Assembly (NCBI GenBank): GCA_944366945.1
Contig: CALVWJ010000001.1
Span: 1-64,000 of the forward strand
Length of the DNA stretch: 64,000 nucleotides
Direction of reading: 5' to 3'
Source of the DNA: an uncultured Clostridia bacterium
Lineage (GTDB): Bacteria; Bacillota; Clostridia; Christensenellales; CAG-138
Shown in pieces: positions 2,329-30,493 of this stretch. Position numbers and translations under genes: made by a program. The notes under the pieces were generated by a model, which was given only the letters and a program-made list of their open reading frames with translations, was not told the DNA's origin and made no database searches. Each line of letters begins with the position of its first letter. Position 1 is the stretch's first letter.

Positions 2329-2332
2329 CAAT

Positions 2333-4900: not shown

Positions 4901-4942
4901 GATTTTGAGTCCGTCACGTCTGCCAATTCCATCACTTCGGCG
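4901..4942 (-). repeat. 42-nt imperfect direct repeat of the tRNA-Leu 5' half (positions 1-41 of the tRNA), probable att scar or tRNA pseudo-fragment
   Basis: gattttgagtccgtcacgtctgccaattccatcacttcggcg versus tRNA region 4719-4760 ggattttgaatccgtcacgtctgccaattccatcacaccggcg (3 mismatches). The flanking sequence can form an acceptor-like stem but has no T-arm. Confidence 0.6.
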
Positions 4943-5079
4943 GATTACGAAAGAGAGTTTACCACAATTTGAACGATTCCGCAACCATAAAGTGTTTAAT
5001 TGCGTTATAATTAATATTAAAGCAAAATGCAAAGAACGCTTGTTTTGCTTTAAATCAGCTTTGCGGAGGAGGTAACCAG

Positions 5080-9062: not shown

Positions 9063-9083
9063 ATTCCTCCCCCATAGAAACAA

Positions 9084-9632
9084 TTATAGGTCAAGCGCCT
9101 TAAGCAGGCGCTCTGCATTTTGGTGCAGCACGCTGGAAGAATATGCGAGCAGCATGATTTCAAGCACATTGATAAGGCGCACTTTTGCGCCGGCGTAAGG
9201 CTCGGCATAATCTGCAAGCGATGCTTCTACAGCTGTGCGCAATGCGCTTCGTGTTGGTACACCTGTGCCAAGGGCGCCAAGTGCGTCTGTAAAATGGTTG
9301 TACAGCAGGGTATCCCCCATTGCATGCTCATCCATGTGCGCACGCGCATGCGCAATGAGCGCAATGATGCTTTCAATCTGCAAAGAATCCTTGAGCGCAT
9401 TGATGATAAGCAAGCGCGAAAGCTGATCACGTGCATACCGCTTTCCGCGGGGCGGTGGCACAAACCCGCGCTTTACCCAATTTTGGATGGTGTGCGGGGC
9501 AAGACCGGTGATTTCTGCAACCTGTGAAAGCACGAGCCCGCCCGGGATAAACATCGGCGCAAGCAGGCGATCCGCAACACCAGGGTGTGAAAGCTCCACT
9601 TCGATCGTGGAACCAGGCAAAAGACCGATCAT
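9084..9632 (-). CDS. DUF1836 domain protein (MerR-like HTH family)
   Basis: Motif HTIQNWVKRGFVPPPRGKRYARDQLSRLLIINALK matches the DUF1836 signature as I recall it. GGTGAGGAGG RBS before the ATG at 9632. First gene of a DUF1836-nfeD-floT operon. Confidence 0.55.
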   Translation of the reverse strand: MIGLLPGSTIEVELSHPGVADRLLAPMFIPGGLVLSQVAEITGLAPHTIQNWVKRGFVPPPRGKRYARDQLSRLLIINALKDSLQIESIIALIAHARAHMDEHAMGDTLLYNHFTDALGALGTGVPTRSALRTAVEASLADYAEPYAGAKVRLINVLEIMLLAYSSSVLHQNAERLLKALDL

Positions 9633-10519: not shown

Positions 10520-10544
10520 AAAGCGTAATTGAACGATGTTTGCG

Positions 10545-10795
10545 TTGAAGAAGAGGAGTACGCGCTCCATCCTGCATCAGAGAGACGGCTTCACCGGCTG
10601 CAAGGGCTGTCGGCGGGCAGGCGCGGAAGGTCGCTTCGGAGCATTCCGGCTGAGCGGAGGTATTCGGGTAAGCTGGAACGGGCGCGCCGCGTTAAGGCGT
10701 ATTTGAGGTGGGGCAGCCATTGCGCGCCCAACAAAGGTGGTACCGCGAGCCATTCGTCCTTTGAGGCGAACGGCTCTTTTTATTTTCAGTAGGTT
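10545..10795 (+). promoter_or_regulatory. T-box riboswitch leader upstream of valS
   Basis: Conserved T-box sequence AAAGGTGGTACCGCG at 10733-10748 overlaps a terminator hairpin (gagccattcg...cgaacggctc) followed by tttttatttt. Stem-I-like AG/GA-rich region upstream. Confidence 0.7.
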
Positions 10796-10827
10796 GTGAA
10801 CCGAATAGAAACAGGAGGATTGAGCCA

Positions 10828-13464
<2,637 letters not shown>

Positions 13465-13609
13465 AGGCAATCGCGGCTTTTCGAGCACCTAAGGGATGGC
13501 GAACACTGCTTTTGCGGAAATTACGGGTGCGCGTAGCGGCTCTGCGCATGCTGTTTGGCATCGCTTGAACTGCAAGCTGGGCGCTGAAACAAAAAACATG
13601 CAATAGGTT

Positions 13610-13647: not shown

Positions 13648-14334
13648 TTAATCCCGCGCAGGTTTCCCCCCAGCATAGAGACCTTTCCCACGGGCGCTTA
13701 GCGCTGCTGGATCGGCAATCCGGTAACGCCCACGCCCAGCGCGCTCGATAAGGCCTTGCGATGCAAGTTGCTCCAACGCGCGCAACAGGTGGCGGTAGCT
13801 CGTGCCGATTAAGTCTGCCGTTTCCGTGAGCGGTTCTGCAAATACGCCGGCGCGCGCCGTGGCGGCAATGTAGGCGCAAAGGCGCGTCTCAAGCGGATAA
13901 AGGATGATGTGGGAACAGTTGGCCGTGCTGTTCTTAAGCTTGCCTGCAAGCGCAGCCCCAACATAGTTTAAAAATGCAGGATTGGAGCGCAGCGCGTCCC
14001 GGTTGCGCGCAAGCGGGACGCCTGCGCATACAACATCGGTCATGGCGCGGATGCTTGTTTCGGCGGTGACGGTGCCGAGCATCAATTCCAAATCCCCAAT
14101 CAAGTCACCCGCTTGCGTGAAACAGAGCAGCAGCTCGCGCCCGTTTTCCGCAAGCACGCTTGCCTTTGCGCGCCCGGAAAGCACAAGCAGGAGATAGGGA
14201 AGCGGTTGGCCCGCCGTGCAGACCGCCTCACCCGGTGCAAAACGCAGCGCAACAGCGCCGAAAAGCGCATCCGAGAAGAGGCAGGCGCTGGCCATCCTTT
14301 GGCGTTGGAGTGCGGAAAGCGGAAATTGCTGCAT
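13648..14334 (-). CDS. Crp/Fnr family transcriptional regulator
   Basis: N-terminal cNMP-binding beta-roll and C-terminal HTH (TSYRHLLRALEQLASQGLIER). Confidence 0.75.
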   Translation of the reverse strand: MQQFPLSALQRQRMASACLFSDALFGAVALRFAPGEAVCTAGQPLPYLLLVLSGRAKASVLAENGRELLLCFTQAGDLIGDLELMLGTVTAETSIRAMTDVVCAGVPLARNRDALRSNPAFLNYVGAALAGKLKNSTANCSHIILYPLETRLCAYIAATARAGVFAEPLTETADLIGTSYRHLLRALEQLASQGLIERAGRGRYRIADPAALSARGKGLYAGGKPARD

Positions 14335-14427: not shown

Positions 14428-15345
14428 ATGTATTATCTGATTTCATTCGTTACCGCAATGCTGGTGTCCGCAATGGTCGCAGTCAACGGAAATCTTTCCG
14501 CAGCCTATGGCACATACCTTTCCACAGTTATGATCCATTTGGTTGGCATTGTGCCGGCAACGGCGATTGCGCTTGCGCGCCGGGAGCGCCTTTTTGCTGT
14601 GCGCGGCATTCGCCCCGGCGTATTCCTGGGCGGCGCCATCGGCGTAATCACGGTTGTTTGCAACAATGCTGCCTACACCGGCGGGATCGGCGTTTGCGCA
14701 ATGGTTGCGCTGAGCCTCCTTGGGCAGACGGTCGCCTCCCTTTTTGTAGATCAGTTCGGCCTGTTCCACATGCCGGTGAAGCGCTTCAATGCTGCAAAGC
14801 TGCTCGGCCTTGCTTGCACGGCGGCAGGGATTGGGTGCATGCTGTATGGAGCGGAAACCTCGGTGCTGCCGGTGCTGCTTTCGTTTGTGATGGGGGTCAC
14901 GATTGTGCTTTCGCGCAGCGTGAACGCCATGCTCGCAGAAAAGACGAGCCTTTTTGTAAGCACATGGTATAATTACTCTGTGGGGCTTTCCGTGGCCCTC
15001 ATCGTATGGCTGCTTGCGGCGCTGTTTGGCAACACACCGCTGCTGCCCGGAGCAAACGTTGCGCCTCCGCCGCTTTGGGCATTTTTGGGCGGTTTCATGG
15101 GTGTGGTTACGGTGTCGGTGCAGAGCTTTGTCACGCCGCGCATGCCGGCGTTTCAGCTTACGCTGGTGCTCTTTATCGGCCAGGTATTCATGGGGCTTTT
15201 GCTCGATGCGTTTTCCGGCGCGGGCGGCTCTGTACAGGAATGGATTGGCGGCGTATGCGCCGTGGCGGGGCTTTCATTGAATGCATTATTGGATCAACGC
15301 GCACAAAGACGGTTGGCGCAAAAAACAGAAAACAATCCAAGTTGA
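14428..15345 (+). CDS. DMT superfamily transporter (DUF606/YdcZ-like, 10 TM)
   Basis: Highly hydrophobic 305-aa protein with an internal duplication pattern typical of the DMT/DUF606 family. Confidence 0.7.
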   Translation: MYYLISFVTAMLVSAMVAVNGNLSAAYGTYLSTVMIHLVGIVPATAIALARRERLFAVRGIRPGVFLGGAIGVITVVCNNAAYTGGIGVCAMVALSLLGQTVASLFVDQFGLFHMPVKRFNAAKLLGLACTAAGIGCMLYGAETSVLPVLLSFVMGVTIVLSRSVNAMLAEKTSLFVSTWYNYSVGLSVALIVWLLAALFGNTPLLPGANVAPPPLWAFLGGFMGVVTVSVQSFVTPRMPAFQLTLVLFIGQVFMGLLLDAFSGAGGSVQEWIGGVCAVAGLSLNALLDQRAQRRLAQKTENNPS

Positions 15346-15359
15346 AAGGGGTCAAAACC

Positions 15360-15689
15360 ATGCGGATCGATTTTTCCGAAATCAGCGAAACGGTGCTTTC
15401 CAAATTTAAGGGCGGCGAAAAGGAGATGCTTGCAAGGATGTATCTGGATGGAGAAAACCGCATCCTGCTGGGGCGGCTTGCACCAGGCGCTTCCATTGGA
15501 ACGCATGTACATGATACGAGCTGCGAAATTATCTATATCCTGCGTGGAACCGGGAAAGCGATGTGTGACGGCAGCCCGGAAACGCTTGCACCAGGCATAT
15601 GCCATTATTGCCCGAAAGGGCATTCCCACAGCCTTGTCAACGATGGCACGGAGGAACTCATGTTCTTTGCAGCAGTGCCACAACAGTAA
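15360..15689 (+). CDS. Cupin domain protein
   Basis: G(T)HVHD..EIIYILRGTG motif. Start at the ATG after GAAAGGGG. The upstream extension in the ORF track is rejected. Confidence 0.65.
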   Translation: MRIDFSEISETVLSKFKGGEKEMLARMYLDGENRILLGRLAPGASIGTHVHDTSCEIIYILRGTGKAMCDGSPETLAPGICHYCPKGHSHSLVNDGTEELMFFAAVPQQ

Positions 15690-15789
15690 AAACGTTTTCA
15701 TGAAAAAGCGAGTTGCTTTCCGCACGCATAAAGGCGCTTGCAAAGGGCGCAGTTGTTCATGTGGAAGTTGCAGCATTTGAAAAGCGCGC

Positions 15790-15828
15790 CACGCCGGCAG
15801 GAAGAAATGCCTGCCGGCGTGTTTTTTT
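15790..15828 (+). terminator. Rho-independent terminator after the cupin gene
   Basis: cgccggcagg-aagaaatg-cctgccggcg followed by tgtttttttgg. Confidence 0.65.
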
Positions 15829-15877
15829 GGAATTGCCCGGAAAGAATAGGGGGAGAGTTTTTAGGAGGGCATGTGGA

Positions 15878-18800
15878 TATGGCGGTAAACCGAGCGTTTT
15901 TTGGGCTTGTGGGCGCAACGCTGGAGGGAGAGCGGCTTGAAGAGCGCGCACGTGAATTGGCAGGCCGTGCCAGCGGGCGTGCCCGGCGCGCCCATTTTAC
16001 GGAGACGCTGCATCCAGGCGGCGACCGAAGGGCGATCCTTTCGGACTATAAGCGCCTTCTAGCCTGCGCCCGCGCTGGGGTAGAACTATCGCCTGCGGCA
16101 GAAACGCTGCTGGATTCCTTTTATGTTGTGGAAAAAAGCCTTATCGTGCTCATAAACGCAAGCGAGCAGCTGCGGGATCAAGCGCTGCCCGTAAACCGCG
16201 AAGGGGAGCATTTGGGCATCCCGCGGGCCTATTCGGCAGCTGTGGGCCTTGTAGGGCATCATAACGCACGCATAGAGGATGCTTCACTCGCGCGGTATTT
16301 GGCTGCCTATCAGCAGATAAGCCCTCTGTCCATGTGTGAACTTTGTGCCTTTCCGGCCATGCTCCGGCTTTGCGTGGTGCGCGCGGTGCGGCTGATGAGC
16401 ACGGCTGCCGCACATCGGGCAGAAGAGCATCTGCGCGCGAAGGAACTCGCAGATGTGCTCTGCCGCGTTGCCTGGGATGAAAAGCGGGTGGATGCAATCC
16501 TTGCGCGCGCTGGATTGCATGGACGCCCAGCCTGCGTGGAACGGCTGGCGTCGCTTTTGCAGGAACGGGATGCGTATCGCTTGATCGAACGCATGAACGC
16601 AGCGCTGCGCATGGCGGATGTGGATGCGGATACTCTTATTGGAAAAGACCGCAAAATTCAAACGCAGAATGCCATGCGCATGCAAAACGCGATTGCAAGC
16701 TTGCGCTTTCTTGATGCGCTTGATTTTCGGGATTTCTTTGAGCGGTTCAGCGCTGTGGAAGCGGCGCTGCGCGAGGACGCGGTTTACCCGCAGATGGATG
16801 CAGAAACGCGGGCGTATTATCGCGCCTGCGTGGAACGGTGCGCAGAGCAGCTTGCGGTGGCGGAAACGGTGGTTGCAAAAACGGCCGTGCGCCTTGCGCA
16901 GGAAGGGGAAGGCAGGCTGGCGCATGTGGGCGCTTACCTGTTTGAAGAAGGCGAGCCGCTGCTCTGGGCGGCACTGCGCCCGGACCGGCGGCATGTTCGC
17001 TGGACGGAAAACCGTAAACTGGCGCTTTTTGTTGTGGGAGAAGGCGTGCTCGCTGCGGCGCTTATCGCACTTGCTGCTACAGGTGGGATCGTGCCATTCC
17101 TTCTCGCGTTTCTCCCATCTTGGAGCCTTGGCCGCTTTCTTGCGGTGCGTATTGCCATGCTGGGACGCAAAGCAAAACGCATTCCGCGCATGGATTTTGC
17201 GGGGGGCGTGCCGGATACAGCGCGCACGCTCGTCGCCGTACCAACGCTGATCCTTTCCGAAGAGGGAATCGCCGCTTCGCTTGCACAGCTCGAAACGCAC
17301 TATCTGGCGAATCCGCTTGCCAATTGCTGCTTTGCGGTTTTAGGCGATTTTAAGGACGGCCCGGAGGAATGGCGCGATGGGGAGCGAGAGCTGCTCCAAA
17401 AGGCCAAGGAGCAGGTTGATGCGCTCAACGCACGGTATGCAAATGGCGGCGCGCCTATCTTTTATTTTTTGCACCGCAGGCGGGAGCTTTCCCGCTTTGA
17501 CGGCGTTTATATGGGGCGGGAGCGCAAACGTGGTGCGCTGTGTGACTTGGTTGAACTGCTTATGGCAGGGGATGCGGAACCCTTTGCGCTCATCAGCGCT
17601 CCGTTGCCGCAGGATATCCACTATTGCCTTACGCTGGATGCGGATACCCTTCTGCCGCCCGGGGCGTTGGCCAAATGCATCGGTGCGATCGCACATCCGC
17701 TGAACAGACCGGTTTCAGACCAAAATGGCGTGGTACGGCTGGGGCATGGTGTGATCGCTCCGCGCATGCGGCAAACGCTTTCTTCGGCTGCAAAAACGCC
17801 ATTTGCACGGCTCATGAGCGGAGAAAGCGGCGTAGATCTTTATGCGTCGGTTGCCAGCGAATTCTATCAAGACGTGTTTGGAACCGGGAATTTTGGCGGC
17901 AAAGGGATTTTCGATGTGGCTGCATTCCGGGCTGCACTATTGAACTGGATCCCGGAGAATACCGTTTTAAGCCATGACCTGCTGGAAGGTTGCTTCCTGC
18001 GGGCGGGATTCCTTGGGGATGTGGCGCTCTATGATGGAGAACCTTCTACGTTTGCCGCATGGTGGAAACGGCAACACCGCTGGATGCGCGGGGACTGGCA
18101 GCTCTTACCCTTCCTTTTGCCGCATCTGCGCGATGCGGCCGCAGGCCCCCATAAGACCCCGCTTTCCCTGCTTTCCCGCGTAAAGATGCTCGATAATCTG
18201 CGCCGCACCTTGCTTGCGCCATCCGTGCTTCTTCTGCTGCTTTTCATGCCGTATTTCGGTGCAGGCGCATATATCTGGATCGGGATTGTTGCGCTGTGGG
18301 ATGGCTTATTATGGGATATGTTTGCGCTGCTTGGATCCTTCTTTTTGAATGGATTTCGGGCACGAGGCGGCTGGGGTGCCCTGCGAGATCGCGGAGAAGC
18401 GGCACTGCGCGCACTCCTTGAGTTCGTGACACTTCCCTTCGCTGCATACAGGAATTGCGATGCTATCATCCGCTCCCTTTGGCGCGTGCTCATCTCGCAT
18501 CGCAATATGCTGGAATGGCAGACGGCTGCGGAAGCCTCAAAGAAAGGAAAAACGGAAGGCCTACTGAACACATGCAGGCTGCTTTGGCCCTGCCTTACAG
18601 CAGGCGGGCTGATGACGCTCAGCATTTTTATGGGGCGTATGCCTTTGGCGAGCGCGGTTTTGGCACTGCTGTTTTTTGCTGCGCCTGCGCTCGTGCTGCG
18701 CCTGGATCGCCCGTGCGCAGAGGAGGCGCTTGCCCCGGCCGTGCGCGCAGCCATTGCGGAATGGGCTGCGCGCACCTGGAACTACTTTGAAACCTTCTGC

Positions 18801-21800
18801 AAGGAGGAGCAGGGATTCCTGCCGCCGGATAATTTTCAAGAGGCCCCTCTAGGCGTTACGGTCGACAACACCTCTCCCACCAATATTGGTATGGCAATGC
18901 TTTCCACCGTGGCGGCACACCTGCTTGGACTGATCGATGTACAATGCCTCATTCTGCGCCTTGAACGCATGGCAGAGCGCATCGAGGATGCGGAAAAATG
19001 GAACGGCCATCTCTATAATTGGTATGCGTTGGAACCGTTTGTTCCGCTTGAACCGCGTTATGTTTCCACGGTGGACAGCGGTAACTTGGCCGCATGCCTG
19101 CTCGCATGCGAAAGCGCGCTTCTCTCATTTGGCACGAAGGAGGCAGAAACGCTGGCGGGCCGCCTGCGCGCACTTGCGGAGGGTATGGATTTCCGCGCAC
19201 TGTACGATCCGAAGAAAAAGCTATTCCACATTGGATTCGATTGCGTTTCCGGAACGCTTACGAAGTCCTGGTATGATCTGCTTGCCTCAGAAGCGCGCTT
19301 GACAAGCTTTACTGCGATCGCATTGCACCAGGTGGATGCGGAACACTGGCAAAACCTTTCCCGCCTGCTTGTGGATGCGGATGGCGGGAGAACGCTCATC
19401 TCCTGGAGCGGCACGATGTTTGAATATCTCATGCCCGCCCTCCTTACGGGGGTGGTGCCTGGGAGTCTTCTCGATGAAAGCTGCACGGCTGCAGTGCGCG
19501 CGCAGCGCGCGGCAGTGCCTGCAGGAACGCCGTGGGGCATTTCGGAATCGGGATACTATGCGTTTGACCGGGCGATGTTTTACCAATACCGCGCCTTTGG
19601 CGTGCGCGCAGTCGCGCTTTGCCCGGCGCGGGAACGGGAGCGCGTAATTGCACCATATGCTTCCATGCTTGCGCTCATGGCTGCCCCGCGGGCAGCAGTG
19701 GAAAACTTGATGCGCCTTGAGGCACTTGGAGCCCTGGGGAAATATGGATTTTATGAGGCTCTGGATTTTACGCCACAGCGCCTACGCGCAGAGGTGCCGT
19801 TTGAAACGGTGAAAAGCTACATGGCGCATCACCAAGGCATGAGCCTTTGCGCTGCGGCGAATGCCCTCACAGACGGCGCACTTGCAAAGTGCTTCCTCCG
19901 CGTGCCCGAAGTGCGCGCGATGAGCTTGTTGCTTGCGGAAAAACGGCCATCGCTTGCACTTACCATTCGTGCGTTCCGCAGTGCCAGCACAGGAGAGGAA
20001 AAACCGCTGCCACGCCGGGAAAGCAAGCCGCGCGTAGTCACGCGCCTGGGGGCTGTGCCGGAAACGCAGCTGCTCACAAATGGGCGCTATACCGTTTTTT
20101 TAACGGATCATGGCCTTTCTTACAGCCGCTGCGGCGAAACGCTGCTTACGCGATTCCGGCCAGATCCGTTGCGCGCGGATTCCGGCATCCATTTCCTCGT
20201 GCGGGATGGGGGGCAGGTCTGGTCCCTTGCGGGTGCGCCAGCTAATACGCAGGCAGATGCATACCGCGTAACGCTCGAGCCGTACAAGGTAACCTATGAG
20301 CGCAGGGATGGCAGCATTTCCTCGCGCCTTGCCGTCTGCGTATCTCCTCGCCATGACGGCGAGATACGACATCTGCTCCTTAAAAACGATGGCTTGGAAC
20401 CGCACGAGTTGGAAGTGGGCGCTTTTGCGGAGATTGCGCTTGCTACGCAGGAGGAAGACCTCGCCCATCCTGCGTTTGTGAAGCTTACCGTTGACGCGCA
20501 ATTGGAAGGAGATACGCTCCTTTTTACGCGCAGAGGGAAGAATGCCTGTTGGGCCTATGCGCGCCTTGCCGGCCCCGTAAAGCCCAAGTACGCGGTGGAT
20601 CGGCTTTCCTACCTGGGCCGTAACCGCACTTATGTGCAGGCTATGCAAACGCCTATGGTTACGCCGGAAACGGTTGCATCTCCCATCGAACCCGGGCTTT
20701 GCGCGCGTGCGAGCATCACCTTGAAGCCGGGGGAAAGCGCGGAATTTACGCTCCTTATCGGCATGGCGGAAAGCGAGAAAGCAGCGCTTTCGGAGGTAGA
20801 AGCCATGCAGGCTGAAGCGGGCGAAGCGTTTGACCTTGCCTGGGCACATGCAAACAGCGCCCTGCGTTTTCAAGGCATTGAACCTGGAAAGGCAGTGCTG
20901 TTTGAGCGTATTGCCGCACGGATCATTCTTGGCATTCCGCAGGGCCGCGCGCTTCCTGCCGGGCTATGCTTAGGCATCCCAGGGTTTTGGAAGCTTGGCA
21001 TTTCCGGAGATCTGCCTATCGTGCTGCTGCGCGTGGAACGGCATGCTTCCGTACGCATTGCAAAAACGCTGCTGGAACTGCATGCTTATTTACGCGCGCG
21101 CGGCGTTCGGTTCGACCTGGCATTGATTGGCGTCTATCCAAACGAATATGCGTGCGAGCTGCGCTTGCGCTTGCAGGACATGATCGAAGCCTGCGCAGGT
21201 GGAGAGGAGACCGTGCATCTTCTGCATGCCTATGCGCTGTCCGAAGCGGATCGCGCAACGCTTGAGACGCTTTGTCTCATCTGCGTAGATCCGAAAAAGA
21301 GTTTGGACCGCCAATTCCTTACGCCAGCTGCGCGGGAGATGCCAACACCTACCTTTACGCCGCGGCGGGAGGCACGCGGTGCATTTGCGCCCGAAGAGGA
21401 AAAACTACAGTTTTCAAATGGCTGTGGAGGATTTAATGCAGCGGGAGATGAATATGTGATCCGCCTTGCGCCGGGAGAAAGCACGCCGCTTCCCTGGGCA
21501 AACGTGCTTGCAAACGAGCGTTTTGGAACGCTTGTAACGGAAAGCGGGGGCGGATATACCTGGTGCGGGAATAGCCGGGAGCATAAGCTTACCCCGTGGG
21601 CAAACGATCCGGTACGTGATCCCAAAGGAGAAATCTTGTTGCTTTATGATTTGGATGACAGGACGGCGTGGACGCTCACGCAGGGGCCACTTTCGCGTGG
21701 TGCGCGCACGGAGACGCGCCACGGGTTCGGGTATACAAGTTTTGCTTCCGAAGCCGAGGAGCTTTCCGCAACGCTCCTGGTATTTGTGGATGCGGAGCAG

Positions 21801-23705
21801 CCTGTGAAATATTCGCTATTGACGTTGCACAACCCTATGCTGCGGGAGCGGCATGTGGGCGTGGTTTATGCGGCGGAATGGGTGCTTTCCAGCCTGCCGC
21901 ATCCCGAGGCGGTGCACACGCGCTTTGACGGCCACGCCTGCTATGCAGAAAATCTGCGGGAACCCGCTGCAACCCAGGCCTATATTGCCATGGCAGGCGG
22001 AGCGGATGCAGTAGAGTGTGCAACATGCCGGGAGGATGTGCTCTGCGGCGGCTGGGCGCGCGATGCCTGGGATGCTGTGGAAAACGCCTATGGAACGGGT
22101 TTTTGTGCGCTGCGCACGCAGCTTACGCTTGCCCCGGGTGAAACGCGCACCCTGGTGTTATTGATGGGCGAGGATACGCCGGAAACGATTGCCCCGCTTA
22201 TCTCCTTGGATGCGCACGCGGTGCAAGCGCGCCTCCAGATGGTAAAAGCACTCTGGCAGGCACGGCTTGCCGCCGTGCAGGTGCAGACGCCGGATCGGGG
22301 GATGAATGTGCTCCTCAATGGGTGGCTGCTTTACCAGACGTGGAGCGCCCGCGTGCTTGGCCGCACGGGGTATTACCAATGCGGCGGCGCCATCGGCTTT
22401 AGGGATCAGCTCCAGGATATGCTTTGCCTCCTGCATATGGATCCTGCGCGCGTGCGTGCACATCTGCTGTTGTGCGCTGCGCGCCAGTTCGAGGCAGGGG
22501 ATGTGCTGCACTGGTGGCATCCGCCGGCAAATGGCGTGCGTACCCACATCACAGATGATCGGCTGTTCCTGCCTTATGTGGCGCTTGCCTATGCGGAAGC
22601 CACGGGGGATGCATCCATCTGGGATGTGAGCGTGCCTTACCTTCAAGATAAACCCATTCCGGAAGGGGCGCGCGATCTGTATTGCGCGATGGAAGAAGGG
22701 GAGAAACAAGAGCCGATTTACCTGCACTGCGCACGGGCAATTGAGTGCACGCTTGCATTTGGCCCACATGGCTTGCCGCTGATGGGGGATGGCGATTGGA
22801 ACGACGGCATGGATCGAGTAGGAGAAGACGGCGGTGAAAGCGTCTGGCTCGGCATGTTCCTTGTGGATGTGCTTTCCCGTTTTGCACCGATTGCCGCACA
22901 GCGCGGAGATGATGCGCGCGCTGCGCATTATACCGCATCCGCAGAGCAGCTTCGCGCTGCATTGGAGGAGGCGGGCTGGGATGGCGCCTGGTACCGCCGG
23001 GCATATTTTGCAAACGGGGAGAGCCTCGGTTCACGCGGCAGCGCTGCTTGCGCGATCGATCTGCTCAGCCAGGCATGGGCTGCAATCTGCGGCCTTGCGC
23101 ATGCGCAGGAGGCGTTTGATTCTGCAATGGCGCTACTTGTAAACCGGGAAAATGGCCTGGTACGGTTGCTTGCACCACCGTTTGAACGACCAGATGCAAA
23201 CGTTGGGTATATCAGTAACTATCTCGCAGGCGTGCGGGAAAACGGCGGGCAGTATACACATGCTGCGGCATGGCTGCTGCGCGCGGCCTGCCGCTTGAAA
23301 AAGGCGGATTGCGCGCAGGAGCTTTTCTCCATGCTCAACCCAATCTCGCATGCGGATAGCACGTTTTCCATGCGGCGCTACAAAGCGGAGCCCTATGTGC
23401 TTGCCGGCGACGTTTATGCCGTGGGCCGTAACGCAGGGCGTGGCGGCTGGACCTGGTATACCGGCGCAGCCGGCTGGCTCTATACGGTTGTGCTTTCGGA
23501 TGTCCTTGGCGTGGTGCGGCGAGGGGAGCGCTTGTTTGTTTCGCCATGCACACAATTTCCGGAATACACCGTGCGCTACCGCTTTGGAAACGCAGTATAT
23601 GCAATCACGGTACGCGGCGGAGCGCAGGGGCCGCAGGATGGAATTCCACTTGTGGACGATGGCCTCATCCACAACCTTTTGATCGAGCCGGGGAAGGCTA
23701 CTTGA
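15878..23705 (+). CDS. Cyclic beta-1,2-glucan synthase-like giant membrane glycosyltransferase (GT84 domain + GH94 phosphorylase-like domain), about 2609 aa
   Basis: TAGGAGGG RBS 7 nt before the ATG at 15878. GT84-type DxD motif LTLDADTLLPPGA. TM clusters before and after the GT domain. GH94 signatures LISWSGTMFEYLMPAL and GGAIGFRDQLQDM. Overall Cgs/NdvB/ChvB architecture. Confidence 0.8.
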
Positions 23706-23736
23706 AATGCGGAGGCGTTTGCGGTAAAGTAAAGGC

Positions 23737-25662
23737 ATGACAAAGCAAACGCCTCCTGCATATCCATCCAATTTTCTGCCTACTACGGCTGCGGAACTTG
23801 CCGCACGCGGCATTGTGCAGCTTGATTTCGTATATATTATTGGCGATGCTTATGTAGACCACCCGAGCTTTGGGCCAGCGATCATCAGCCGCGTGCTCGA
23901 AAGCCACGGATACACGGTCGGCATCATTGCCCAGCCGGATTGGCACAGCGCAGAGGAAATGAAACGCCTGGGCCGGCCGCGTCTTGCGTTCCTTATCAGC
24001 GCGGGAAACATTGATTCCATGGTAAACCATTATACCTCCGCAAAAAAACGCCGCTCCAGCGATGCTTATACTCCTGGCGGCGAAGCGGGCAGGCGGCCCG
24101 ACCGCGCGACGATCGTTTATGCGAACCGCGCGCGGGAGGCTTATCGTGGCGTCCCGGTGGTGATAGGAGGCATTGAAGCAAGCCTTCGGCGCTTTGCACA
24201 TTACGATTATTGGGATGATAAAGTGCGAAGGAGCATCCTTGCAGATTCTGGCGCCGATCTCCTCATTTACGGCATGGGCGAACGGCAAATTGTTGAGATT
24301 GCAGATGCGCTTGCAAGTGGCTTGCCAATCGAGCAGGTTACCTACATAAATGGAACCTGCTACATGACCCGTTCCTTGGAACAGGTTTATGAATACGAGC
24401 AAATCGAAAGCTATGAGGCTGTTGCACGGGATAAAAAAGCATATGCATCCGCCTTTATGACGCAATATAGGGAACAGGATGCCATTCGGGGGAAACGCCT
24501 CGTGCAGCCGCATGGGGATGGGTTCCTCGTGGTCAACCCGCCGGCCGCTCCGTTGACGACAGAAGAACTTGACGCAGTCTATGAACTCCCTTACATGCGC
24601 GCGCCACACCCTTCTTATCAAAAAGAGATACCGGCCCTTTTCGAGGTAAAGTTTTCACTTACTTCTTGCCGCGGGTGTTTTGGCGCATGCGCATTCTGCG
24701 CGCTTACGTTCCACCAAGGCCGGGTAATTTCCGCGCGCAGCCATGCATCGCTCCTGCGGGAGGCGGAGCTGCTCACCCGCCAGCCGGATTTTAAAGGAAA
24801 CATCCACGATGTCGGCGGCCCAACGGCGAACTTCCGCCAGCCAGCCTGCAAAAAGCAGCGCAAAAACGGCGTGTGCGCCGACCGGCAATGCCTGGGCTTT
24901 ACGCCCTGCAAAAACCTCGAGGTGGATCATCGGGACTATATCGCATTGCTGCAAAAACTTTCAGCGGTGCCCGGAGTAAAGCATGTCTTTGTTCGTTCGG
25001 GAATTCGCTATGATTATGTGATGTATGATAAAAGCGATGCCTTTTTGCGCACGCTGATTCAAAACCATGTTTCGGGGCATCTCAAAGTGGCGCCAGAACA
25101 CGTATCCGATCGGGTGCTGCTGCGCATGGGCAAGCCTGCCTGCACCCTTTATGACCGCTTTGTTGCAAAATTCATGCAGCTGAACCGCAACCTTGGTAAA
25201 GAGCAGTATATTGTGCCATATTTCATGTCTTCTCACCCTGGAAGCGATCTCGCAGCAGCGGTAGAACTTGCTGAATACCTAAAGCGAACTGGGCAGCGGC
25301 CGGAGCAAGTGCAGGATTTTTATCCAACGCCCGGCACGCTTTCCACATGCATGTATTATACTGGATTTGACCCGCGCACGGGTGAGCGGGTTTACGTGCC
25401 TCGGAGTGCATCTGAAAAGGCAATGCAACGTGCGCTGATGCAATACTTTATGCCGCAATATCGAGCGCTTGCACGCAAAGCGCTCGAGAAGGCAGGCAGG
25501 GAGGATCTCATCGGCTTTGGAAAACATGCACTTGTACCCCCGGCTAAACAGAATATAGAAGGAAATGAAAATAAAAAATGCAGGAAAACAAGACGGAACT
25601 TGCATGAAAAGGGCGGAAAAATGCTGCGAAATACGCGTAGAGACGCTTCAAGGCACCGCTGA
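23737..25662 (+). CDS. ygiQ: YgiQ family radical SAM protein (UPF0313)
   Basis: N-terminal YgiQ-specific domain (IIGDAYVDHPSFG) and radical SAM core (SCRGCFGACAFC). Confidence 0.85.
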   Translation: MTKQTPPAYPSNFLPTTAAELAARGIVQLDFVYIIGDAYVDHPSFGPAIISRVLESHGYTVGIIAQPDWHSAEEMKRLGRPRLAFLISAGNIDSMVNHYTSAKKRRSSDAYTPGGEAGRRPDRATIVYANRAREAYRGVPVVIGGIEASLRRFAHYDYWDDKVRRSILADSGADLLIYGMGERQIVEIADALASGLPIEQVTYINGTCYMTRSLEQVYEYEQIESYEAVARDKKAYASAFMTQYREQDAIRGKRLVQPHGDGFLVVNPPAAPLTTEELDAVYELPYMRAPHPSYQKEIPALFEVKFSLTSCRGCFGACAFCALTFHQGRVISARSHASLLREAELLTRQPDFKGNIHDVGGPTANFRQPACKKQRKNGVCADRQCLGFTPCKNLEVDHRDYIALLQKLSAVPGVKHVFVRSGIRYDYVMYDKSDAFLRTLIQNHVSGHLKVAPEHVSDRVLLRMGKPACTLYDRFVAKFMQLNRNLGKEQYIVPYFMSSHPGSDLAAAVELAEYLKRTGQRPEQVQDFYPTPGTLSTCMYYTGFDPRTGERVYVPRSASEKAMQRALMQYFMPQYRALARKALEKAGREDLIGFGKHALVPPAKQNIEGNENKKCRKTRRNLHEKGGKMLRNTRRDASRHR

Positions 25663-25815: not shown

Positions 25816-26304
25816 ATGGACAATGGACAGGGCGCTCGGAAAGAACTTTACGAGCAGCTGGACAAAGTCATCCTGCAATGGAAAGACCAGCCCGGTGGGC
25901 TACTCCCGATCATGCAGAATGCGCAGGAGATTTTTGGTTGTGTGGATGAAGATGTGCAGCACTATATCTCCAAAGAGGTGGGCGTTCCCGTATCTACTAT
26001 TTATGGTGTAGCAACGTTCTATTCCCAGTTTACATTGCAACCCAAAGGAAAATATGCGATCGGCCTTTGCCTTGGAACGGCCTGCTATGTGCGTGGCTCT
26101 CAGCTCGTTATGGACGAACTGGTCAAACAGCTTGGCGTCGAGCCTGGCCATACTACGCCGGACGGCCTGTTTACCTTGGATGCCACCCGTTGCATCGGCT
26201 GCTGCGGCCTTGCCCCCGCAATGATGATTAATGACGACGTTTATGGAAAAGTAACGCCGGAGGAAGTATCTGGCATTCTGAATAAATATCGCCAAATCGG
26301 CTGA
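25816..26304 (+). CDS. NuoE-like [2Fe-2S] thioredoxin-fold subunit (HydC/HndA-type flavoprotein small subunit)
   Basis: Cys pattern C..C....CxxxC (GLCLGTACYVRG...RCIGCCGLAP) typical of the NuoE 24-kDa family. GGAGGG RBS. Confidence 0.85.
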   Translation: MDNGQGARKELYEQLDKVILQWKDQPGGLLPIMQNAQEIFGCVDEDVQHYISKEVGVPVSTIYGVATFYSQFTLQPKGKYAIGLCLGTACYVRGSQLVMDELVKQLGVEPGHTTPDGLFTLDATRCIGCCGLAPAMMINDDVYGKVTPEEVSGILNKYRQIG

Positions 26305-26321
26305 AAAACGAGGAGCACCGC

Positions 26322-26684
26322 GTGAAAGTATCCCAAATTGCGCAGATCCTGCGGGCAGAAGTCCGTTGCGGGGAAGAAAACCTTGGGTTGGATATTCCCT
26401 ATGCCGTCGCAAGCGATATGATGAGCGATGTGCTGGTTTGCAACGACTCTGACCGCGTGCTGATTTCCGGGCTTTGCACAGTGCATACTGTACTTACGGC
26501 CCAGATTTTGGATTTGCGCGCCATCGTATTCGTGCGCGGCAAGCGCCCTACCCCGGAAATGATCGAGGTAGCAGAGGAAAATGGGATCACTGTCCTCTGC
26601 ACGGATATGAGCATGTTTAACACCTGCGGCGAGCTCTACAAGCATGGCATGAAAGGACGCGCGCGCCCGGATGGAACGGATTGA
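26322..26684 (+). CDS. DRTGG domain protein
   Basis: 120-aa protein with the arrangement LISGLCTVHTVLTAQILDLRAIVFVRG typical of DRTGG domains. Sits in the hydrogenase regulatory cluster. Confidence 0.55.
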   Translation: MKVSQIAQILRAEVRCGEENLGLDIPYAVASDMMSDVLVCNDSDRVLISGLCTVHTVLTAQILDLRAIVFVRGKRPTPEMIEVAEENGITVLCTDMSMFNTCGELYKHGMKGRARPDGTD

Positions 26685-27114
26685 AAAAGAGACGACCTAT
26701 CAGGAAACACGCAAAGTTGAGAAGGGGGATTTTGCTGCAGCAGGGCAGATTTCCGCTTCGTATAAAAACATGCTGAAACGGTTGGGAGTAGACTCCAAAG
26801 TGGTGCGCAGGCTTGCCATTGCTTCTTATGAAGCAGAAATCAATCTTGCGATTCACACGTTTGGCGGAAGTATGACCATTACGGTTTACCCCGACCACAT
26901 TGTTCTCGTCGTTAAGGATACGGGTCCGGGCATTGCAGATATCGGCCTTGCGATGCAGGAAGGCTATTCTACCGCATCGGAACAGGTGCGCATGCTGGGA
27001 TTTGGTGCCGGAATGGGACTTCCAAATATGAAACGCTGCTCGGATACTTTTGAGATCACCTCTGAGTTAGGAATTGGAACAACGATTGAAATGGGCTTTC
27101 TTTTAACTCCATAA
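26671..27114 (+). CDS. GHKL-type ATP-binding protein (anti-sigma-factor/RsbW-like Ser kinase fold)
   Basis: N, G1 and G2 boxes (EAEINLAIHT, VKDTGPGIAD, GFGAGMGLPN). Confidence 0.65.
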   Translation: MERIEKETTYQETRKVEKGDFAAAGQISASYKNMLKRLGVDSKVVRRLAIASYEAEINLAIHTFGGSMTITVYPDHIVLVVKDTGPGIADIGLAMQEGYSTASEQVRMLGFGAGMGLPNMKRCSDTFEITSELGIGTTIEMGFLLTP

Positions 27115-27175
27115 ATCGTAATGGAATCAATCCGCCTGGAGCGGTCCAGCGCACACGCTGGCAGAAGGAGTGCGT

Positions 27176-28459
27176 ATGGATAAAAAACAGATCTACCATA
27201 GCGTTAAACTGGAAAAGGACAAATGCGTAGGTTGCACAACATGCTTAAAGCGGTGCCCGATGGAATGCATCCGTGTGCGTAACGGAAAGGCGAGTATCCT
27301 TTACGAACTGTGTATTGATTGCGGCGTATGCGTGCGCATTTGCCCGCACAACGCGAAGGTCGCGCAGACGGATCCGATCAATGAGATCTTCCGTTACAAA
27401 CACCGCATTGCACTGCCTGCGCCAACGCTTTATGGGCAATTTCGAAACGTTACAAGCGTAGACCATGTACTCAGTGCCTTGCTTTCACTCGGGTTTAGCG
27501 ATGTGTTTGAGGTAGCACGCGCAGCGGATATTGTATCTGCCACCATGCGCGAGCTGCTGAAGACCACAACGGCCAGGCCGCTGATTTCTTCTGCTTGCCC
27601 TGCGGTCGTAGCTCTTATCCAGGTTCGTTTCCCGGAGTTGCTTCCAAATGTTGCCAACGTGCTTTCCCCCAAGGAGGTGGCAGGCAAGATGGCAAAGGAG
27701 GAATACTCCAGGGAGCACAATGTCCCTATTGAAGAAATTGGTGCGTTTTTTATCACCCCATGCCCGGCAAAAATGGCTAGCATCCATTCTGGACGGAGTG
27801 GCTATGTGGATGGCGCAATTGCAATTCAAGATATTTATGGTCTGCTTTCTTCCCAGCTTAGACAGCCTGTTTCGGAGAAAATTCGTAAGAAACGTCATGC
27901 GAGCTGGCAGGGCGTCAATTGGGCCACCTATGGCGGCGAGTGCGCATCGCTCCATCGTAGCAATACGCTTTCGGTGGATGGCATCCATAATGTAATTTAT
28001 GCGCTTGAGGAAATTGAAAACGGAAAGCTGGATGATCTTGAGTTCTTTGAAGGCTCTGCCTGTGAAGGCGGTTGTGTGGGTGGGCCGCTGGTGTTTGAAA
28101 ATGCCTTTGTTGCCCAAAACACGGTGCGCAAACTTGTGGAGCGCATGCGGGAAGAGGATGGCGATCTTCCGCCTGCCCTGCCTGCACCGCGGGATGACAT
28201 TTTGACGGATCCGTGTGCTCCGAGGGATACGCTAAAGCTTTCTGATAATATTGCTGAGGCAATCAGCATGATGGAGCGCATTGACGAACTTACAAAAACC
28301 TTTAAGGGGCTTGATTGCGGCTCCTGCGGCAGCCCAACCTGTCGCACGCTTGCAGAGGACATCGTTCTCGGGTATGCCAAGGAAGTGGACTGCGTGTTTA
28401 AGCTTAAGGAAAAGGTAGAGCAGCTTGCACGCCAGATGGTGGATTTGACCAACCTGTAG
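27176..28459 (+). CDS. HydS-like putative sensory [FeFe] hydrogenase: 2x[4Fe-4S] ferredoxin domain, degenerate H-cluster domain, C-terminal Cys4 motif
   Basis: N-terminal CVGCTTCLKRCP and CIDCGVCVRICP. H-cluster motifs altered relative to catalytic HydA: L1 SSACP instead of TSCCP, L2 TPCPAKM, L3 EGSACEGGCVGGP instead of MACPGGC. C-terminal CGSCGSPTC(x16)C. Confidence 0.75.
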   Translation: MDKKQIYHSVKLEKDKCVGCTTCLKRCPMECIRVRNGKASILYELCIDCGVCVRICPHNAKVAQTDPINEIFRYKHRIALPAPTLYGQFRNVTSVDHVLSALLSLGFSDVFEVARAADIVSATMRELLKTTTARPLISSACPAVVALIQVRFPELLPNVANVLSPKEVAGKMAKEEYSREHNVPIEEIGAFFITPCPAKMASIHSGRSGYVDGAIAIQDIYGLLSSQLRQPVSEKIRKKRHASWQGVNWATYGGECASLHRSNTLSVDGIHNVIYALEEIENGKLDDLEFFEGSACEGGCVGGPLVFENAFVAQNTVRKLVERMREEDGDLPPALPAPRDDILTDPCAPRDTLKLSDNIAEAISMMERIDELTKTFKGLDCGSCGSPTCRTLAEDIVLGYAKEVDCVFKLKEKVEQLARQMVDLTNL

Positions 28460-28487
28460 CAGGGAAGAAAACGTATGGGAGGCAAAC

Positions 28488-28823
28488 ATGACCGTTGCGC
28501 AATTGATAGAACCGCTGGAATTGACGTTGCTAACGCCGCAAACAAGCCTTGAACGCGAGGTAACAGGTGGCTGTGTCTGCGATCTGCTCAGCTTTGTGAT
28601 GGCGCGCGGGGATGCGGGCATGGCCTGGATCACTGTGCAGACACACTTGAACGTGATCGCGGTTGCTAGCTTGCATGAGTTTTCCTGCGTGATTGTGGCC
28701 GAAGGCTCTGCGGTGGAGCCGGAAACGCTTGCTAAAGCTACGGAAGAGGATATTCCGGTGCTGCGCAGCGCGCTTTCCGAATATACGCTCAGCGGCAGAC
28801 TGTATGCGCTAGGCGTGCGCTGA
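28488..28823 (+). CDS. DRTGG domain protein (second copy)
   Basis: 111 aa, similar architecture to 26322-26684 (WITVQTHLNVIAVASL...VIVAEG). Confidence 0.5.
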   Translation: MTVAQLIEPLELTLLTPQTSLEREVTGGCVCDLLSFVMARGDAGMAWITVQTHLNVIAVASLHEFSCVIVAEGSAVEPETLAKATEEDIPVLRSALSEYTLSGRLYALGVR

Positions 28824-28829
28824 AAAACG

Positions 28830-29537
28830 ATGAAAAGCCCGGTGGACCTGCACATCCACTCCTGCCTTTCGCCCTGCGCAGATGATGATATGACCCCCTG
28901 GAACATCGTGGGCATGGCAAAACTCAAAGGGCTGGCTGCCGTTGCTGTGTGCGATCACAACAGTGCGCGCAACCTACCTGCAGCATGCAAGGCGGGCAGG
29001 GAATACGGCGTGTGCGTGCTGCCCGGAATCGAGGTCACGAGCCGGGAGGATGTGCACCTGCTCTGCTATTTTGAAACGCTTAGCCAAGCCATGGATATGG
29101 GAATGCGGATCGAACGTGAACAGCCCCACATCAAGAACAAACCGGAGCTGTTTGGCCATCAGATCCTTGTGGATGAAGATGATACATTTTTGGGGGAGGC
29201 AGAACATCTCCTGCTTGCGGCGTGCAACCTTTCCATTTCGGATCTTGCGCAGGCTGCATGGGAGCTTGGCGGCGTGATGGTTCCGGCGCACATTAACAAG
29301 GGGGCGAACAGCCTTTTGCCGGTGCTGGGCATGCTGCCCGAAAATATCGCGTTGCCAACGGTGGAAATCTTTCGGACGGTGCCGCATCGCGCGGCGGGAA
29401 AGCTCTGCCTTCATGCGAGCGACGCACACACGCTTGTTGATATCCGCGAAGCGGAGGACGCCTGCGTGCTGGAACTTCAAGAACTTACGCCGGCAGCCCT
29501 TATCCAGGTGCTGCGCAAGGGAAAGGGGGAAACGTGA
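28830..29537 (+). CDS. PHP domain phosphoesterase
   Basis: N-terminal HIHS and DHN metal-binding motifs (VDLHIHSCLSPCADD...AVCDHNS) characteristic of the PHP family. Confidence 0.7.
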   Translation: MKSPVDLHIHSCLSPCADDDMTPWNIVGMAKLKGLAAVAVCDHNSARNLPAACKAGREYGVCVLPGIEVTSREDVHLLCYFETLSQAMDMGMRIEREQPHIKNKPELFGHQILVDEDDTFLGEAEHLLLAACNLSISDLAQAAWELGGVMVPAHINKGANSLLPVLGMLPENIALPTVEIFRTVPHRAAGKLCLHASDAHTLVDIREAEDACVLELQELTPAALIQVLRKGKGET

Positions 29538-30094
29538 AGGAGATTTCGCTGCATATACTTGACCTGGCACAAAATTCCATCCGTGCAGGTGCGGGCAATG
29601 TGCTGATCCGCATCGAGGAAGACAGCGCTGCGGATACCTTTTCGGTCTCCCTTACCGACGATGGCTGCGGCATGGGCGCGGAGATGGCAAAATCGGTGCA
29701 AAACCCGTTTGTGACCACGCGCACCACCCGCAAGGTCGGGTTGGGCATTCCGCTGTTTAAGGCTGGCTGCGAGAACTGCGCAGGCACATTTACGCTGGAA
29801 AGTGAATTGGGGCGCGGGACACGCATTGCCGGCACCTATCAGCGCAGCCATATTGACCGGCCGCCGCTTGGCAACATTGCGGACACCATTGCAATGCTCA
29901 TCGCGGCCAATCCAAAGCTTCACCTTAGATATGAGCATAAGCTCAACGGCGAGGAATACGCACTTGATACGGCGGAGATCCAGGAGATCCTGGGCGAGGT
30001 TCCGCTGGATACGCCGGAAGTGACCGCCTTTATCGCCGAATTTATCCATAGCAACGAATCAGAATTAGAATCAACGGAGGTACAGAAATCATGA
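29534..30094 (+). CDS. GHKL-type ATP-binding protein (second histidine-kinase-like ATPase)
   Basis: HATPase_c boxes (HILDLAQNSIRAG, LTDDGCGMG, GLGIPL). Translationally coupled to the PHP gene. Confidence 0.6.
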   Translation: MKEISLHILDLAQNSIRAGAGNVLIRIEEDSAADTFSVSLTDDGCGMGAEMAKSVQNPFVTTRTTRKVGLGIPLFKAGCENCAGTFTLESELGRGTRIAGTYQRSHIDRPPLGNIADTIAMLIAANPKLHLRYEHKLNGEEYALDTAEIQEILGEVPLDTPEVTAFIAEFIHSNESELESTEVQKS

Positions 30095-30459: not shown

Positions 30460-30493
30460 AAATCACTGAAGGACAAGAAGGAGAGTTAAGAAG

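Follow-up and report, generated by a model that had tools for sequence, protein, structure and literature searches.

Cyclic β-1,2-glucans are periplasmic osmoprotectants and serve as host-interaction or virulence factors in Brucella, Agrobacterium, and rhizobia. Does a 7.8-kb gene within 64 kb of DNA from a Clostridia-class anaerobe (the whole stretch analyzed, hereafter "the window") encode an intact synthase for such rings, in a cell that is presumably a monoderm without a periplasm? The assignment of the host, already suspected in the initial annotation to be of Clostridia type, was corroborated by the relatives of its ValS, the nearest named of which include gut-associated taxa (Christensenellaceae and Ca. 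Pelethousia). The gene, here designated cgs, is not in itself a discovery, because database annotations and the Thermoanaerobacter enzyme that defines family GH189 already imply it. For the same reason, the view that Cgs is characterized almost exclusively in Proteobacteria is outdated: GH189 was founded on TiCGSCy, the cyclization domain of TiCGS (Thit_1831; PDB 8WY1) from Thermoanaerobacter italicus (Tanaka et al, 2024; PMC10834661), and homologues of Cgs occur in many phyla. Acidobacteriota, Chloroflexota, Verrucomicrobiota, Planctomycetota, Bacillota, and Actinomycetota are among the phyla with homologues; a scan of contigs, in which the matches listed had 33–41% identity, serves to show this breadth.

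The longest ORF at the locus spans positions 15738..23705 on the + strand. The likely start of cgs is the ATG at 15879, from which one uninterrupted frame (15879..23705, +), matching PDB entries 8rf0/8rf9 over the full length, encodes 2608 amino acids followed by a stop codon. Thus, the region and the single ORF of the initial annotation stand, whereas the start shifts from 15878 to 15879 and the length from 2609 to 2608 aa. Gene callers assigned 2608 aa to the homologues with 99% and 82% identity as well, and 2602 aa to one with 79%. The strong RBS and the preceding terminator, both noted before, could be located precisely: a Shine-Dalgarno sequence (AGGAGG, 15863..15868, +) was read from the sequence 10 nt before the ATG, and further upstream lies an intrinsic-terminator-like hairpin with a T-run (15790..15828, +; hairpin 15790–15821), consisting of a 12-bp stem with 10 GC pairs and a TTTTTTT tail. 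The hairpin closes the upstream cupin/YdcZ transcript and parts cgs from it. As had been stated, no other gene in the window comes near cgs in size, the second being valS (878 aa). Eight antisense or off-frame ORFs inside it (160–338 aa) had no Pfam match and, with the sense frame being under purifying selection, were rejected as genes, which agrees with their earlier dismissal as spurious.

A long gene in an unexpected host could be a relic that no longer functions, or could have been acquired horizontally not long ago and have no role there. Its GC content (58–59%) is slightly above the window average (∼55%), and the family is patchy among Clostridia, both of which would fit this explanation. 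However, the 7.8-kb frame is uninterrupted and has its own RBS behind a clean terminator, orthologues of equal length were found at the same locus at 99, 82, 55, and 47% identity, and relatives down to 47% identity retained the locus together with the same downstream genes. Furthermore, dN/dS (calculated against the 82%-identical orthologue) was ∼0.10 in the N-terminal domain (NTD), the transmembrane plus glycosyltransferase (TM+GT) region, the cyclization (CY) domain, and the glycoside phosphorylase (GP) region alike. Purifying selection and vertical conservation of cgs within its clade are thereby shown, and the chance that it is a relic or an idle newcomer is close to nil.

The protein is colinear over its full length with the chains of A. 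tumefaciens Cgs (AtCgs) resolved by cryo-EM (8rf0/8rf9; E = 0, 1407 bits). The alignment spans residues 50–1100 and 1091–2558 of the query, and alignments of sub-regions agree with it. This bears out the Cgs/NdvB/ChvB architecture initially proposed for the single ORF, and the domain order NTD-TM-GT84-TM-CY-GH94 is that of characterized Cgs. The former two-module scheme (GT84 plus GH94) was incomplete, as it left out the cyclization domain (GH189), which is a third catalytic module. Pfam recognized PF10091, two stretches of PF06165, and PF17167. All 17 of the 17 functionally tested or highlighted residues that were mapped onto the protein (GT84, primer tyrosine, GH189, and GH94) are conserved. 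The N-terminal cytoplasmic scaffold domain (15879..17012, +; aa 1 to ∼378) was placed through the alignment with the AtCgs NTD, which begins at query residue 50. A Kyte-Doolittle scan, inspection by eye, and the AtCgs alignment predicted six TM helices arranged in three hydrophobic hairpins: TM1-2 (17013..17159, +; aa ∼379–427; hydropathy scan and AtCgs TM alignment), TM3-4 (18201..18344, +; aa ∼775–822; hydropathy scan), and TM5-6 (18564..18698, +; aa ∼896–940; hydropathy scan).

Between the first and the second hairpin lies the GT84 glycosyltransferase domain, a modified GT2 fold (17166..18188, +; aa ∼430–770). As neither Pfam nor NCBIfam contains a GT84 model, membership was judged by the alignment with AtCgs, from which the residues were also mapped. 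D490, R549, D587/D589 (the LDAD motif, as reported initially), Y655, D700 (SHDLLEG), R734-W735, and R737 (QHRWMRGDW) are present, and AtCgs D527, R586, D624/D626, Y694, D739, R773, and R776 are all conserved, as D490, R549, D587/D589, Y655, D700, R734, and R737. In AtCgs, D527 binds UDP, D624/D626 form the DxD motif, D739 is the catalytic base, and R773 belongs to the RW motif; D527, D624, D739, and R773 are listed as conserved motif residues, and D624, D626, D739, R586, R776, and Y694 were mutated (PMC10901819). Y694 is the self-glucosylated primer tyrosine of AtCgs (PMC10901819); the candidate primer Y655 aligns with it (GVDLY versus GIDPY) in the IF1-homology loop. The alignment to a Cgs that had been suggested for checking the catalytic Asp residues, carried out with the A. 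tumefaciens enzyme, thus found all of them conserved.

With library models the GT region scored below threshold, 19.8 bits for Pfam GT2_3 (PF13632; cutoff 27) and 19.7 bits for NCBIfam MdoH (cutoff 328), whereas the Pfam scores of the GH94 and GH189-related domains are far higher. The protein might, hence, mainly degrade or recycle glucans, with GH94 and GH189 acting on imported β-1,2-glucans and the GT module being vestigial; other Firmicutes, Listeria and Lachnoclostridium, do use soluble GH94 β-1,2-oligoglucan phosphorylases in catabolism (PMC3960220; PMC10901819). However, the weak Pfam score results from the absence of a GT84 model in the library, and the alignment to the N-terminal half of AtCgs reached 503 bits. 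Moreover, none of the GT84 motifs is disrupted, the primer tyrosine is in place, dN/dS of the TM+GT region (∼0.09) is as low as that of the remainder of the protein, and no sugar-uptake or glucosidase genes are present near cgs. A mainly degradative enzyme is, thus, very improbable.

The cyclization domain (18699..19991, +; aa ∼941–1371), a GH189-type (α/α)6 transglycosylase, was delimited by alignments with 8rf0 and 8wy1 and by PF10091; its alignment with TiCGSCy (8wy1) had an E value of 2e-106, and its fold is predicted from sequence identity to be a GH144/GH162-like (α/α)6 domain. S1101/D1104/E1300 of AtCgs and E1356/E1400/E1442/H1536/H1537 of TiCGS (numbering offset confirmed from the construct range 1005–1591) are conserved as S1063, D1066, acid/base E1138, E1182, nucleophile E1223, and H1317/H1318. 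In TiCGS, E1442 is the nucleophile and E1356 the acid/base, with E1400 and H1536/H1537 in supporting roles (PMC10834661). The third motif quoted in the initial annotation, SWSGTMFEY (∼1175–1183), is indeed present, but SWSGTMFEYLMPAL sits in this middle domain and not in GH94. What the domain lacks, at ∼aa 1088–1091, is the insert of four helices that AtCgs and TiCGS have: DSGN and LLASE are separated by 72 aa in the query, compared with 196 in AtCgs and ∼228 in TiCGS, and the clade represented in the window is altogether without this dimerization insert of roughly 115–160 aa. The short form as a mark of Firmicutes or monoderms was considered and rejected, as Alpha- and Gammaproteobacteria, Acidobacteriota, and Planctomycetota have it too, whereas some Bacillota have the long form. 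The four-helix motif is a trait of AtCgs and TiCGS and does not define the family.

The remainder of the protein is the GP region (19992..23702, +; aa ∼1372–2608), delimited by Pfam and AtCgs alignments and composed of two supersandwich subdomains, an RFL subdomain (∼20871–21332, +; ∼aa 1665–1818), and the GH94 catalytic domain (22254–23510, +; aa 2126–2544). Pfam matched PF06165 with E = 5e-91 and PF17167 with E = 3e-105. The active-site residues D2393 and D2528 of AtCgs, the Asp of GFRDQ and the catalytic acid of DWND, respectively (PMC10901819), are conserved as D2176 in GFRDQLQD (2173–2180, present as quoted initially) and the predicted catalytic acid D2309 in DWNDG. Soluble GH94 phosphorylases matched the full-length query with 1e-51 to 1e-60 and the C-terminal segment with ∼1e-42 to 1e-45. 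A soluble cellobiose or chitobiose phosphorylase, which had been set as the test of the Cgs assignment, does not account for the GT84 motifs, the membrane module, and the full-length match to AtCgs.

Taken together, the product of cgs is probably an intact cyclic β-1,2-glucan synthase of known enzyme type; judged from its sequence, we put the probability at roughly 0.85. Its substrate, ring product, ring size, and cellular destination are deduced by analogy. By homology with AtCgs and TiCGS, the protein would reside in the cytoplasmic membrane via its six predicted TM helices, with every catalytic domain facing the cytoplasm. The GT84 domain would use UDP-glucose to glucosylate the protein's own Tyr655 and then to grow linear β-1,2-glucan on this primer. 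Over-long chains would be shortened through phosphorolysis by the GH94 domain (catalytic acid D2309), which may double as a glucan-binding scaffold, and the GH189 domain, employing nucleophile E1223 and acid/base E1138, would cut the chain and join it to its own end, a transfer presumably freeing a ring of roughly 17–25 glucoses. The missing four-helix insert, the sub-threshold GT hits, and the lack of a ChvA/NdvA-type exporter nearby count against this reading. The literature on Gram-positives and Firmicutes yielded no account of a Firmicute that produces cyclic glucans, which is a weak negative, and literature data on the biochemistry of any full-length Bacillota Cgs were not found either; in a rumen study that cites the structure of Cgs, GH94 abundance is the sole relevant mention.

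Using the ChvA-like protein of a Komagataeibacter locus as the probe, tblastn detected no full-length homologue of a ChvA/NdvA-type exporter within the 64 kb of the window or next to cgs in the Bacillota loci examined. In other phyla as well, such an exporter gene seldom adjoins cgs (3 of 86 loci), and because adjacency is rare everywhere, the missing neighbor is uninformative about the genome as a whole. Without this exporter in the window or adjoining Bacillota cgs, the periplasmic destination of the classical system does not apply; ChvA/NdvA is part of the proteobacterial system and not of the Cgs enzyme. The gene next downstream is, as noted initially, ygiQ, encoding a radical SAM protein (Radical_SAM_N + DUF3362; 23737..25662, +). 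As it begins 31 nt downstream of cgs with no terminator in between, both genes are probably cotranscribed.

A Cgs-family enzyme whose output departs from the proteobacterial paradigm could make rings of other sizes, mainly linear or enzyme-bound β-1,2-glucan, a cytoplasmic osmolyte, or a glucan modified by YgiQ. The lack of the 115–158-aa four-helix insert of AtCgs and TiCGS, the presumed lack of a periplasm in the Clostridia-class host, and the absence of a ChvA-like exporter near cgs could be read in this way, as could the fact that cgs immediately precedes ygiQ in three or more diverged Bacillota lineages (4–31 nt apart in the clade of the window). However, the three modules have each retained all of their catalytic residues, so that the distinct product deemed likely in the initial annotation is not supported, although a distinct physiological role in a monoderm anaerobe may exist; and the short CY form, occurring outside monoderms as well, is not tied to their lifestyle. 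For the most part, ygiQ has no cgs beside it: cgs lies upstream in 2 of 80 YgiQ loci, and in 1 of 45 with enough upstream flank, for which reason a general coupling of both genes was rejected. One close relative of this Cgs, from Christensenellaceae (locus L086), has no ygiQ at its locus. A differing output is, therefore, unlikely. It is similarly doubtful that, in a number of Bacillota anaerobes, cgs and the uncharacterized ygiQ constitute a conserved unit of two genes, with a fate of the glucan unlike that in Proteobacteria; if so, the glucan might be modified by YgiQ, or be kept as a cytoplasmic or cell wall–associated solute, and the unit would give a first clue to the function of the YgiQ family.

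The presence in a Clostridia-class anaerobe of an intact Cgs that evolves under purifying selection places the pathway in bacteria presumed to be without a periplasm and offers an entry point to the question of whether gut Clostridia produce cyclic glucans. A naturally shorter Cgs without the dimerization insert may also suit structural or synthetic-biology work, and the conserved pairing of cgs and ygiQ is a possible clue to an orphan radical SAM family.

Among known systems, BcsA-type membrane GT2 synthases share with Cgs the GT fold, the DxD motif, the catalytic Asp, the Q/RxxRW motif, and a site beneath TM helices; Cgs, in contrast, has neither a transmembrane export channel nor PilZ, and the loop carrying the primer tyrosine replaces the IF1 helix (PMC10901819). 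Soluble GH94 phosphorylases (cellobiose/chitobiose, e.g., 1V7V and 3QDE; LpSOGP, Lin1839) have the supersandwich, the (α/α)6 domain, and the DWND acid in common with the C-terminal ∼750 aa of the query, but are catabolic enzymes of ∼800–1000 aa lacking its GT, TM, and cyclization modules. The biochemically best-characterized full-length Cgs is that of Brucella abortus (BaCGS), a virulence factor with a periplasmic product (PMC10834661); according to its description, to which this likeness is confined, the same three modules perform initiation, elongation, length control, and cyclization (PMC10834661). AtCgs (ChvB/NdvB; 8RF0/8RF9/8RFE/8RFG; Sedzicki et al, 2024; PMC10901819) shares the order NTD, TM, GT84, TM, CY, and GP1-RFL-GP2-GP3, and the GT84, primer-Tyr, CY, and GH94 residues tested there are all conserved in the query. 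The deposited 8rf0 chain is longer (2818 versus 2608 aa). AtCgs has a ∼115-aa four-helix CY motif making a back-to-back dimer contact, which the query lacks, and several shorter deletions in GP1/RFL leave the query with 696 versus 747 aligned residues. The hosts differ as well, the query stemming from a Clostridia-class anaerobe with no chvA-type exporter adjacent. TiCGS, of which the isolated cyclization domain only was assayed (PMC10834661), carries, between DSGN and LLASE, an insert of ∼158 aa that is missing from the query, and T. italicus is thermophilic, whereas gut-associated taxa are among the nearest named ValS relatives of the query host. Both organisms belong to the class Clostridia, and E1442, E1356, E1400, and H1536/H1537 of TiCGS correspond to E1223, E1138, E1182, and H1317/H1318 of the query.

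The longest plus-strand ORF in the window runs from 15738 to 23705. Within it, cgs likely starts at the in-frame ATG at 15879, 10 nt past an AGGAGG (15863-15868), which would yield a protein of 2608 aa; gene-caller lengths of homologues are 2608 aa (99% and 82% identity) and 2602 aa (79% identity). The start at 15878 and the length of 2609 aa proposed in the initial annotation are both off by one. The terminator it had placed upstream corresponds to a strong terminator-like hairpin at 15790-15821 (12-bp stem with 10 GC pairs, followed by a T-run). That cgs is the largest gene of the window was borne out, as was the presence of spurious ORFs in its interior: eight ORFs (160-338 aa) on the opposite strand or in another frame, none with a Pfam match, are attributable to the GC content of 58-59%.

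A Pfam scan of Cgs revealed the PF10091 "Glycoamylase" domain at aa 1133-1339, the GH94 supersandwich as two PF06165 stretches (E=5e-91), the GH94 catalytic domain PF17167 at aa 2126-2544 (E=3e-105), and, below threshold, a GT2 match at aa 584-805; the NCBIfam scan returned a weak match to MdoH and nothing else. A Rossmann-fold-like subdomain lies between GP1 and GP2 of the phosphorylase region. Among PDB sequences, Cgs matched 8wy1, the cyclization domain of the Thermoanaerobacter italicus enzyme TiCGS (residues 1005-1591), at E=2e-106, and soluble cellobiose and chitobiose phosphorylases matched the C-terminal part of Cgs only. From these matches, the reading as a soluble GH94 enzyme devoid of a membrane GT module fails, and the search settles, at the level of sequence, the identity of the protein. 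The GT84 plus GH94 assignment made at the outset was essentially right but missed one catalytic module, the cyclization (GH189) domain. The motifs quoted in its support were all found in the translated sequence; SWSGTMFEYLMPAL, however, taken for a GH94 signature, lies inside the cyclization domain. Hydropathy analysis predicted three hydrophobic hairpins (aa 379-427, 775-822, and 896-940), consistent with the six-helix TM domain of Agrobacterium tumefaciens Cgs (AtCgs), and a fourth hydrophobic stretch (aa 1003-1028) within the soluble cyclization domain.

All residues tested or highlighted in PMC10901819 and PMC10834661 were mapped by alignment to 8rf0 (AtCgs) and 8wy1, and each was verified in the translated sequence. 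The 8rf0 chain numbering is that of the paper, as S1101/D1104, E1300, D2393, and D2528 land at the published places; TiCGS numbering is the 8wy1 chain index plus 1003. Conservation was complete (17/17). In the GT84 part, D490, R549, D587/D589 (in LDAD), D700 (in SHDLLEG), R734-W735, and R737 correspond to AtCgs D527, R586, D624/D626, the catalytic base D739, R773 of the RW motif, and R776, respectively. Y655 corresponds to Y694, on which AtCgs glucosylates itself (PMC10901819). In the cyclization domain, S1063/D1066 match AtCgs S1101/D1104; E1138 matches AtCgs E1300 and the TiCGS acid/base E1356; E1182 (in SWSGTMFEY), E1223 (in WGISESG), and H1317/H1318 match TiCGS E1400, the nucleophile E1442, and H1536/H1537. 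D2176 (in GFRDQLQD) and D2309 (in DWNDG) of the GH94 region are equivalent to AtCgs D2393 and the catalytic acid D2528.

By homology to the enzymes of these two studies, every catalytic domain of Cgs would reside on the cytoplasmic side. GT84 would use UDP-glucose to glucosylate Tyr655 and then grow a linear β-1,2 chain on that primer, whose length GH94 would cap by phosphorolysis while also offering a glucan-binding surface. GH189 would form a glycosyl-enzyme on E1223, with E1138 working via the 3-OH of the +2 glucose, and then move the chain onto its own 2-OH end, setting the ring free. The isolated TiCGS domain yields rings of DP 17 and above. Purifying constraint appears even along the protein: relative to the 82%-identity orthologue (L081), dN/dS (Nei-Gojobori) was ∼0.10 overall and ∼0.09-0.11 in each of the N-terminal, TM plus GT, cyclization, and phosphorylase parts, ratios that are approximate because dS (∼1.16) is near saturation. 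Orthologues at 82%, 55%, and 47% identity are of near-equal length and occupy the same locus.

The argument for novelty in the initial annotation was overstated, as this kind of enzyme and its presence outside Proteobacteria are already well known. At least 2181 proteins of a large collection match Cgs at E≤1e-10, and at least 598 stretches from species-representative genomes encode relatives, of which those listed include Acidobacteriota, Chloroflexota, Verrucomicrobiota, Planctomycetota, Nitrospirota, Actinomycetota, Bacteroidota, Bdellovibrio, and Bacillota (Neobacillus, Salipaludibacillus, and several Clostridia MAGs). Several sources already label relatives "cyclic beta-1,2-glucan synthetase". 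The founding member of GH189, TiCGS, is a Clostridia-class enzyme (PMC10834661); T. italicus, termed "Gram-negative" in a review (PMC11842490), is taxonomically a member of Clostridia. A proteobacterial speciality therefore holds for physiology and full-length biochemistry, but not for occurrence, and no evidence pointed to the distinct product that had been suggested.

As annotated, ygiQ follows cgs, with a gap of 31 nt (junction 23705-23737) and no terminator between. In relatives at 82%, 55%, and 47% Cgs identity, the gap is 31, 21, and 4 nt, respectively, and the pair is kept while the genes upstream differ. Three Bacillota MAGs whose Cgs is ∼40% identical and has the long cyclization domain share the pair, and the one examined in detail (L014) has wholly different flanks on both sides; a further lineage at ∼35% (L126) carries it too. 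Altogether, at least three diverged lineages of Bacillota (35-82% Cgs identity; the window and loci L081, L082, L084, L013-L015, L087, and L126) have cgs directly 5′ of ygiQ, a radical-SAM gene. Conversely, cgs was upstream in 2 of 80 sampled YgiQ loci and absent from the other 78, and a Christensenellaceae relative carries cgs with no ygiQ at the locus. An ancestral gene order from which cgs was repeatedly lost could account for this pattern, as could a functional link. The 90%-identity cluster of protein P0011 has a 2584-aa Cgs representative, yet contains many YgiQ proteins of ∼648 aa; gene calls that fuse cgs with ygiQ, only 4 nt apart there, likely chain both families, which inflates its apparent member count (5283). 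No ChvA/NdvA-type exporter was found in the 64-kb window, nor next to cgs at any of the Bacillota loci examined; such exporters rarely adjoin cgs in any phylum (3 of 86 loci), so this absence says little about the whole genome.

The Crp/Fnr-family regulator (13648-14334, −, divergent), YdcZ-type DMT membrane protein (14428-15345, +), and small cupin (∼15360-15689, +) upstream of cgs are conserved as a trio in the 82%-identity relative only and are therefore probably unrelated to it. Downstream of ygiQ, an FeFe-hydrogenase-associated cluster (25816-32284) encodes a NuoE-like 2Fe-2S protein, a histidine-kinase-like ATPase, an FeS-domain protein resembling the Fe-hydrogenase large subunit (27170-28459), a PHP-domain protein, and a NuoF-like subunit (30494-32284); relatives with as little as 47% Cgs identity keep this block 3′ of cgs/ygiQ. 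Directly 5′ of valS (10828-13464) is a T-box leader (10536-10764; 101.8 bits), typical of Firmicutes, and ValS is 77-79% identical to that of Candidatus Pelethousia (Bacillota, Clostridia, Eubacteriales), Christensenellaceae, Clostridia, and Eubacteriales MAGs. Together with the hydrogenase cluster and the clpX-lonB-lon and mraW-PBP-murE blocks, the T-box leader and the ValS matches support the proposed Clostridia-type anaerobe, presumably a monoderm. A 900-aa ORF antisense to valS (10786-13488, −) is probably another spurious high-GC ORF; three ORFs without Pfam match (8414-9217, 34098-35030, and 47347-48735, all −; 267, 310, and 462 aa) are putative genes. A pemK RNA motif (2831-2908), a phage-type tyrosine integrase (3358-4557, +), the adjoining tRNA-Leu(CAA) (4673-4759, −), and a fall in GC to 47-49% across 2001-6000 may mark one border of an integrated mobile element.

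Compared with the characterized enzymes, the cyclization domain of the window's clade is short. At aa ∼1088-1091 (window ∼19140-19150), AtCgs carries ∼115 additional residues, a four-helix insert that forms the back-to-back dimer contact (PMC10901819), and TiCGS ∼158, all of which Cgs lacks. Among homologues, the distance from DSGN to LLASE is bimodal, either ∼69-88 or ∼180-300 aa. The long form is found in some Clostridia MAGs, and the short one is shared by Sphingomonadaceae, Gammaproteobacteria, Acidobacteriota, Planctomycetota, and Neobacillus; rather than a lineage hallmark, it is a variant recurring in unrelated phyla.
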